In this document: positions 8,951 to 10,285 of the stretch, piece after piece
Position numbering within the stretch: position 1 is the first letter of the stretch
Layout of the letters: the number at the start of each line of letters is the position of its first letter
IMG/VR virus record: IMGVR_UViG_3300017991_000052
DNA from: a virus
Length of the DNA stretch: 64,000 bases
Strand: one strand, 5' to 3'
Position numbers and translations under genes: made by a program
The notes under the pieces: generated by a model
What the model was told of the DNA's origin: nothing
Database searches by the model: none
The model's input: only the letters and a program-made list of their open reading frames with translations

Positions 8951-10285
8951 ATGGGTACGTTAGATAGAACATACAAAGATATTTTAAAGCAATTTTTTCC
9001 TGAGACGTCACATAAAATACCTATTTATAAAACTATGTCAACGACAGTTGGTAAACCAAGAGGTCCACTTACTGAAGAGCATAAGCGCCATATTAGCGAA
9101 TCATTAAAAAAGAAATATGGTGCCACTAATTATGATGAAATATTTAAACGTTTTATTAGTGAAAATTACGGTATTATTGGTAATGTCGTAAAAAAATATC
9201 AACCTTATGCCGATCGAGATGATTTGATTCAAGAAGCATTGGTTAAGGTATATGAAAATTTTCATAGATATGATCCAGATATTTCTAAACCTACTACTTG
9301 GTTAAATCAAGTAGTTAGTGGACATTTACATGGATATATTACTCCTCAAGAATTAAAAAGGCATGGGGCTTATGTAAAAATGGTAACTTTTAAAAGAATT
9401 GCTGCAAAATTCCTAAAAGATACTGGAAAAGAAGCAACAAATGAAGATATTTCTCGTATCTCAGGAGAACCTCTTGAAAAAGTAAATGTTATTTTAAATC
9501 TTTCCAAACCCGTACTTCAATTAGATCAACCAATGAAATTCGGCGATGATGATAATATGTTATTAGGAGATACGCTTGAAGTCATTGGCCCATCACCAGA
9601 AGATATTGTAGAAAGAATAGAGGCAAAAGAAATGATTAATCAAGCAATAGATCAGTTAGATGATAGAGAGAAAGTAGTTATATTAGAAAATACTGGATAC
9701 AAAACTGGCGAACCTAAAAATGATTCTGAAGTTGCAAGAATATTAAATATTTCAAGTGTATATGTAAAAAAGATAAGGGAAAAAGCATTTGATAAAATGA
9801 AAAGATTTTTAAAGAAAAAAGAATATGTTGCAAAATCAGAAGATACTCCAGATAAAATTATTCTATATTTAGCAGGAATAGAACAAGCGATTAATCAATT
9901 AAATGATAAAGCAGTTATTAAATCAATGGTCACTTCATTATTAACTGCTATTAGTAAAAAAGAAATTAAAAAAACATATAATCCAATAAGAATTAGACAA
10001 AGAGATCCAAAAATATTTAATAAAGATACCATGAGAACAATAAGTTTATCAAAAAGTCTTGGTATTCAAGCGGTTATTGGTGAATTACCAAACGATAAAA
10101 GAACAAGAGTTCAAACACTTATATTCAATAGAACTCCCGATGAAGGCAAAACATGGGATTTAAAAGAAGCAAAATCATGGGTAAAAGCGCATAAAGAAAG
10201 GATAAAAGTAAGTTTAGATTTAAAAGAATTATTAGAAAAAACTAAAAAAATTATCGATAAACAAATAGAAGAAGAGGTGAAATAA
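8951..10285 (+). CDS. Sigma70-family RNA polymerase sigma domain (regions 2-4) fused to a head-associated C-terminal domain
   Basis: DDLIQEA..VYENFHRYDP..TTWL (r2), ATNEDIS (r3), LDDREKVVI..EVARILNIS..VKKIREKAFDKMK (r4); C-terminal RIRQRDP..F..GIQAVIG..VQTLIF..W..EAKSW domain. Confidence 0.85.
   Translation: MGTLDRTYKDILKQFFPETSHKIPIYKTMSTTVGKPRGPLTEEHKRHISESLKKKYGATNYDEIFKRFISENYGIIGNVVKKYQPYADRDDLIQEALVKVYENFHRYDPDISKPTTWLNQVVSGHLHGYITPQELKRHGAYVKMVTFKRIAAKFLKDTGKEATNEDISRISGEPLEKVNVILNLSKPVLQLDQPMKFGDDDNMLLGDTLEVIGPSPEDIVERIEAKEMINQAIDQLDDREKVVILENTGYKTGEPKNDSEVARILNISSVYVKKIREKAFDKMKRFLKKKEYVAKSEDTPDKIILYLAGIEQAINQLNDKAVIKSMVTSLLTAISKKEIKKTYNPIRIRQRDPKIFNKDTMRTISLSKSLGIQAVIGELPNDKRTRVQTLIFNRTPDEGKTWDLKEAKSWVKAHKERIKVSLDLKELLEKTKKIIDKQIEEEVK

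Follow-up and report, generated by a model that had tools for sequence, protein, structure and literature searches.

The sigma factor gene and its neighbours

The window, i.e., the whole 64,000-nucleotide stretch of DNA analyzed here, comes from a virus contig of 152 kb (G000), about 85% complete, with a myovirus-like structural region. On the plus strand, a portal gene (6257-7909, PF04860) is followed by a gene for a MuF-like minor head protein (8111-8941), which is absent in one sub-lineage of the sigma-bearing relatives. The initial annotation had called this gene MuF, and this is likely correct: among PHROGs, minor head and head morphogenesis families were matched (E 1e-6 to 1e-4), while the Pfam MuF family was not. 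Nine bases past it, with a ribosome-binding site ahead, starts an ORF of 444 aa (8951-10285, plus strand) which comprises a leader with a tag, a basic segment, sigma70 regions 2-4, a linker with putative cut sites and a C-terminal head-associated domain. Its stop codon overlaps the ATG of an S78 prohead protease gene (TAATG at 10283-10287), as described earlier. The protease (10285-12261, plus strand, Peptidase_S78) has invariant K|S/A sites of its own at K12, K166 and K197, and is followed by the gene of an HK97-type major capsid protein (12373-15254, plus strand). The capsid protein starts with MGLEK|A, and its N-terminal EKA is invariant in five relatives.

Two group I introns interrupt the capsid gene (Rfam, 12784-13049 and 14007-14235), there is an endonuclease-like ORF in each region, and the intron content differs among relatives. 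The gene after it (15330-15764) has homologues in loci L001-L003 which match RecA_C, in structural context. In the head-completion region, a 741-aa protein (17164-19389) has a homologue in L003 that matches FtsK_SpoIIIE; the N-terminal part of this protein is variable and contains the tag described below twice in L062. A Volactin-family actin homologue is encoded in G000 upstream of the window (L088:1028-2044, PF25216, E 2e-79), and the relative G001 has a Volactin homologue upstream of terminase.

All three sigma70 regions score above the Pfam curated cut-offs, in agreement with the earlier reading of sigma70 regions 2-4 within a head operon. Region 2 (residues 70-124, 9158-9322, PF04542, E 2.9e-9) contains the core-binding motif DLIQE with a nearly invariant Q94, region 3 (residues 148-218, 9392-9604, PF04539, E 4.6e-7) includes an acidic 3.2 finger, and region 4 (residues 232-284, 9644-9802, PF04545, E 1.6e-6) has a helix-turn-helix with a recognition helix unlike that of RpoD. 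The NCBIfam model TIGR02937 places the ORF in the sigma70 superfamily (77 bits, cut-off 42.9). Like bacterial sigma70 groups 1-3 (RpoD/RpoS/SigB-F-G), it has regions 2, 3, 3.2 and 4 in order, at about 25% identity. Unlike these groups, it stays below every NCBIfam subfamily cut-off, with 53-60 bits against cut-offs of 354-385 for group 1/2 (RpoD/RpoS), regions 1.1 and 1.2 were undetected in the ORF (the Pfam search gave no match to PF00140, region 1.2), and the phage sigmas form their own long branch in a tree with bacterial sigmas. The AF2 model of the precursor has a mean pLDDT of 70.9 and a pTM of 0.36. Its top Foldseek matches are all sigma subunits of RNA polymerase complexes (E ~1e-8), and the global TM is low because the sigma domains move freely in the model.

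This ORF is the only match to region 2 or region 4 in G000, and in the complete 178 kb relative G001 region 2 was matched by the sigma gene alone. Neither G000 nor the complete G001 was found to contain a gene for RNA polymerase beta, and a phage without its own RNA polymerase must use the host core. With the DLIQE motif retained, the sigma factor may bind core RNA polymerase and direct initiation. As the register of regions 2.3-2.4 against RpoD is ambiguous, no -10 specificity was drawn from it. The sigma70 fold and the need for host core are shared with SPO1 gp28/gp34, T4 gp55 and the sigmas of Herelleviridae and group 2 jumbo phages, which are non-virion proteins that switch on middle or late genes (PMC12282133; PMC7824862). 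Unlike these, the sigma described here is encoded in a head operon, fused to a head-associated domain, bracketed by putative cut sites and dispensable.

The tag, the putative cut sites and the C-terminal domain

Four putative cleavage sites were named in the initial annotation, and all are present. The first, K27|T, lies in the tag KIPIYK|T (9014-9034, plus strand). P24 and K27 are invariant in 10/10 rows of alignment A1, and a PIxK|small tag precedes sigma in all 11 full-length homologues, a conservation from which cleavage can be predicted. The second, VAK|S (K295, 9827-9838, plus strand), is found directly past region 4, where it would define the mature C-terminus. A K|S/A occurs at aligned positions 292-295 in 11/11 homologues, although the identity of the linker is just 28%. 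VIK|S (K324, 9914-9925, plus strand) has a K|S/T/A counterpart at 324-332 in 9/11 full-length homologues, but its accessibility is doubtful because it sits within a long predicted helix of the linker. Finally, IKK|T (K341, 9965-9976, plus strand) precedes the C-terminal domain, and a site at K338-342 is kept in most of the 11 full-length homologues. In the AF2 model K295 is in a loop and K341 in a low-confidence loop, and K27 is likewise in a loop or low-confidence segment.

The linker is the least conserved part of the protein, and it contains 35 sites against 6 expected across the 11 homologues, while the sigma core contains 17 against 20 expected; as the homologue rows share ancestry, these counts describe conservation and are neither independent trials nor a basis for a p-value. 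Scattered K|S/A sites do occur inside the sigma core of some homologues. They form no conserved column, and the core of the query has none. The conserved sites of the sigma protein, putative targets of the S78 protease, match the invariant sites of the capsid protein and the S78 protease, as well as K103/S104 of HK97. The HK97 protease is of the same family as the S78 protease of G000. Cleavage in HK97 takes place at K103/S104 (PMC10275583).

The tag is not restricted to the sigma gene. When searched as [LIVM]P[IVLM]xK[SAGT], with expected counts from within-protein shuffles, it turns up in the small, variable ORFs near terminase and portal, in many cases at the N-terminus. The head zone of G000 has 8 occurrences against 0.6 expected and the tail and non-structural zones have 0, while in G001 the head zone has 5 against 0.7 expected, the tail zone none and the remainder 2 against 0.9; G001 is the fairer test, since the motif and the head-zone limits were set after viewing G000. 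A second motif, hydrophobic-E-K|small, is enriched about threefold and in head zones only (17 against 5.2 in G000, 20 against 7.7 in G001). Broad K|S patterns were discarded, because a reversed control was likewise enriched in the head zone of G001, and the strict motifs alone are informative. The presence of the tag in other head-zone ORFs suggests a role in targeting. Among the tagged genes, three small ORFs starting at 1364, 1767 and 2303 (1364-2653, plus strand) have an LPIxK|G/A tag and are candidate co-cargo. A tagged head-zone ORF at 20152-20709 (plus strand) has weak ADP-ribosyltransferase-like leads (PTS_2-RNA, E 0.098; Arr-ms feature matches at rank 10), which makes it a candidate second ejected effector. 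In addition, a second leader type, MT[LI]xKY...K|small, opens many unrelated head-zone ORFs; it was seen at 232, 3057, 3494 and 20152 of the window and in many ORFs of G001.

Between the tag and region 2, at the predicted mature N-terminus, is a basic helix (residues 40-56, 9068-9118, plus strand) described earlier as NUMOD3-like. The resemblance stands, with 12/17 identity to the NUMOD3-like start of the intron ORF at 14371, but membership of the family does not: the query fragment had no Pfam match to PF07460 (NUMOD3), and one homologue reached E=0.032 and 14.6 bits, below the cut-off of 20.4. The segment after the tag is NUMOD3-like in most sigma homologues. In P0010, P0005 and L080 it is exchanged for basic modules found in other head-zone ORFs, and the module in P0010 is the one that follows K|A in the ORF at 20152 (69% identity, 26 aa).

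The separate C-terminal domain was also described correctly, and it is mobile. It is an alpha/beta domain of about 80 residues (9980-10210, plus strand) with a confident model (pLDDT 85). Residues 344-420 gave 414 protein matches and no Pfam or PHROG family. The domain is usually fused to prohead proteases or found alone before them: Peptidase_S78 is present in 47 of 137 carriers, other carriers have ChaB, DUF2213, portal, XkdF or Mu I protease domains, and 32/137 are short stand-alone proteins. Structure searches of viral and atlas models lead to prohead proteases, with an HK97-family prohead protease cluster as the top atlas match (TM 0.72), and a fold search of the PDB gave BRX alone (Z 6.2, rmsd 4.2). 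A predicted complex of the domain with the protease scored 0.00, which weighs neither for nor against an interaction. From its fusions and neighbours, the domain is probably a capsid-recruitment module. In L020, L022, L024 and L025 the domain is circularly permuted in some prohead proteases, with the second half before the first, and present in two copies in others.

The translational coupling to the protease and the bracketing sites would also fit a pro-sigma, in which both ends keep the sigma inactive until the prohead protease activates or sequesters it in the producing cell, so that expression of the last genes is coupled to head maturation. Pro-sigmaK and FliA/FlgM are comparison cases for such a checkpoint. 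We regard this as very improbable. The tag is common to many unrelated small, cargo-like ORFs, and the promoters which might be read by the sigma factor (class A, see below) are found ahead of early-type and not terminal genes. Moreover, HK97-type proteases work inside the prohead (PMC12749128), where a product of this size would presumably be trapped.

Variation of the portal-protease slot among relatives

The full-length sigma family has 12 members including the query, with 32-47% identity where measured, and sigma regions 2-4 are intact among the homologues at 28-36% mean identity. A single-sequence search of viral contigs found no sigma relatives, while an alignment-based search of viral contigs did recover them. 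No relative was found in the GTDB genomes or in the cultured phages searched, and the portal reached about 26% identity at best among the latter. In the synteny check suggested earlier, the order portal, sigma, protease is found in every sigma-bearing locus reaching both flanking genes. The full order in these loci is portal, optional MuF-like gene, sigma fusion, protease and capsid, and the sigma gene often overlaps the protease start. In locus L083 (P0169) small tagged ORFs come after the sigma gene, which itself lies downstream of portal.

The sigma part itself is repeatedly truncated. Three truncated relatives (P0009, P0122 and L013) retain the tag, a decayed region 2 without the DLIQE motif and the C-terminal domain, while regions 3-4 are lost. 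These losses occurred at least 2 times and do not form one clade (p-AU 0.004). In G002, which is 73% complete and has a contiguous non-structural region and the same structural operon, sigma was not detected. An essential late or middle sigma should be kept wherever the late operon is shared, and this was not found. Since relatives carry a shortened sigma factor or none, it appears to be accessory and not a late sigma. In more distant relatives the C-terminal domain alone precedes the protease, in several cases after a gene for a zincin-like peptidase. To judge from these loci, sigma is a variable, dispensable passenger and the small C-terminal domain is the constant of the slot. A 1209-aa protein in the same slot (P0124, L005:3230-6859) has the same C-terminal domain at its end and a 3.2-like stretch below significance. 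It was rejected as a sigma factor, since the stretch is weak (hhalign probability 5%, best NCBIfam E 0.001).

The sigma part could also be without any role in transcription, either as a decaying insert in a functional head protein, i.e., the C-terminal domain, or as part of a scaffold that is destroyed. The conservation of 67% for the C-terminal domain against 32% for sigma agrees with this, as do the constancy of this domain in the slot and the repeated truncation of sigma. Nevertheless, all three sigma regions with their motifs have persisted along long branches in 12 or more divergent members, and the conserved cut sites avoid the sigma core. We find this explanation rather improbable compared with a functional sigma that is carried in the head.

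A second architecture occupies the same portal-protease slot in L080 and P0281, where a zincin-like peptidase, a K|S-rich linker, PILK|S, a basic segment and sigma are joined in one chain of 710 residues. Both sigma architectures are on one branch of the tree (99/97), which may be due to long-branch attraction; the outgroup was almost entirely group 1/2-like sigmas. Zincin-like peptidases mark virion-delivered polyvalent proteins (PMC5512222), and the joining of peptidase and sigma in this lineage resembles polyvalent proteins with a zincin MPTase. As with MuF-fused effectors and polyvalent proteins, there is a variable effector slot between portal and protease (PMC5512222). Sigma is unmentioned in that paper, and unlike in MuF-fused effectors, the sigma gene in the window is an ORF separate from the MuF-like gene and is fused to the unnamed protease-associated domain; it is thus not a MuF polymorphic effector.

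Promoter classes and the proposed delivery of sigma

The intergenic DNA of G000 and G001 contains two classes of coding-strand promoters, both with TATAAT and a 17-bp spacing. Class A has a GTTyAAr -35 element and CA[G/T] before the -10 element, and is concentrated where the non-structural region begins, ahead of small ORFs and DUF932. Class B has a T[T/G]TAC -35 element and a TG extension, resembles host sigmaA promoters, and is found ahead of a DnaC/IstB-like gene, RecA and others. The -35 type is tightly linked to the extension (18:0 vs 1:13), in classes that were picked by eye and include paralogous promoter copies. With a site-trained matrix, class A was counted 9 and 16 times in the sigma-bearing genomes and 0 times in the sigma-less G002, whose contig covers the non-structural region and does contain class B; G003 is without the early region and has no bearing on this comparison. 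The CA[G/T] element does occur in G002, but with a TGTACA -35. In L013, where sigma is truncated, a promoter reading TTGATT-17-TATAAT replaces class A at the ortholog of a class A gene. The comparison covers two genomes against one, plus one promoter, and is suggestive of class A as the target of the phage sigma. A short repeat, CCGGAGTGACC, was seen in both orientations in intergenic regions of G001 near 31700, 53500 and 123150.

A non-host promoter consensus, for which the initial annotation proposed a search, was in part recovered: class A is found in the two sigma-bearing genomes, but host sigmaA could read it as well, since it keeps TATAAT, the 17-bp spacing and up to 4/6 of TTGACA. This closeness to the sigmaA consensus would also fit a sigma which is packaged, trimmed and ejected but mainly occupies the host core polymerase and thereby damps host and defence transcription, class A being variants of sigmaA promoters. 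All evidence for packaging equally applies to such a decoy, and three relatives retain just the region 2 remnant between the tag and the C-terminal domain. However, every full-length member retains the DNA-reading regions 3 and 4, the remnants without DLIQE look like decay, and the few injected copies would probably titrate little polymerase. A decoy carries some weight but is on the whole unlikely, and a sigma factor that directs early transcription is preferred.

Two class A promoters are located about 11 kb upstream of the sigma gene, and no strong terminator was found between them and the gene. Early read-through into sigma may thus occur. The number of hits in a generic promoter scan around sigma did not exceed chance (37 vs 29.9 +/- 5), which argues neither for nor against an internal promoter. 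No late promoter class was identified in the promoter search. Together with the lack of a clear terminator, the presence of a sole sigma and no phage RNA polymerase, this could mean that sigma is a cytoplasmic middle or late factor expressed by read-through which amplifies its own structural operon, with the tag and sites as relics of a fusion to a head gene. Known phage sigmas are also non-virion (PMC12282133). We consider this explanation quite unlikely, as a late sigma should be essential, while sigma was truncated at least twice and G002 has the same structural operon without it. In addition, the least conserved part of the protein retains K295|S precisely at the boundary of sigma, and the second architecture repeats the order of tag, then sigma.

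Virion packaging and protease excision, as proposed in the initial annotation, are supported by indirect but converging evidence: the tag is specific to the head zone, two conserved sites flank sigma and none is conserved inside it, the C-terminal carrier is protease-associated, and a second architecture occupies the slot. With the dispensability of sigma, packaging, trimming and ejection become the simplest account. The immediate redirection of host RNA polymerase, which was also proposed, has circumstantial support from class A. The arrangement as such is real and unusual, sigma is well supported as cargo, and its function is putative.

In the mechanism we propose, the precursor would be made together with the head proteins and brought into the prohead by the N-terminal tag and/or the C-terminal domain. 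The S78 protease would cut after K27, after K295 and in the linker, thereby removing both ends and leaving residues 28-295, i.e., a product about 268 residues long that has a short basic helix at the N-terminus and would be too large to escape the shell. Upon infection, sigma would be ejected with the DNA, use region 2 to bind the core RNA polymerase of the host, and favour the class A promoters of small early-type genes, the last being the weakest step. Sigma would then be an accessory head start, like T4 Alt, and not an essential late sigma. Packaging in the virion is the step in which we have good, if not full, confidence. For the full chain of packaging, trimming to about 268 residues, ejection and redirection of early transcription, we see roughly an even chance. 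Slightly more tentative is the broader proposal that this clade of large, uncultured phages delivers a protease-matured sigma in its capsid, which would pair with host core RNA polymerase and open a dedicated set of immediate-early promoters ahead of all phage protein synthesis, as part of a modular K|S-tagged cargo system of HK97-type heads with the unnamed protease-associated domain as carrier.

Phage infection is known to start with the host holoenzyme, which is sometimes modified, e.g., by injected T4 Alt, or with a whole injected polymerase. If the mechanism is correct, the injection of a sigma factor would add a third and minimal route, with early transcription independent of the state of the host sigma, which could matter in starved or slow-growing hosts. 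No described case of a virion-packaged sigma was found in the open-access literature searched. A close comparison is to T4 Alt and the internal proteins, which carry a capsid-targeting sequence, are cut by gp21 and are ejected, where a short N-terminal tag is likewise shared by unrelated variable proteins, and which are trimmed (here predicted for both ends), non-essential and aimed at host RNA polymerase (PMC9026906). Unlike T4 Alt, the cargo here is a sigma subunit and not an ADP-ribosyltransferase, and its packaging is a proposal; the head is of the HK97/S78 type with K|S/A/G/T sites, while T4 gp21 sites are I/L-x-E. As in virion RNA polymerases (N4, phiKZ/AR9, crAss-like), early-gene transcription machinery would arrive with the genome, but in this case the specificity subunit alone would be delivered.

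The locus offers a defined precursor, predicted cut sites, an adjoining protease and candidate promoters, and most steps are thereby approachable in vitro, with no need for a phage culture. A capsid-loading tag for HK97-type heads and a widespread, unnamed head-associated domain are further leads from this locus. Outside the window, at 137218-142503 of G000, ubiquitin-like, JAB, E1-like and ClpC-like genes are found consecutively, and this arrangement is kept in G001.
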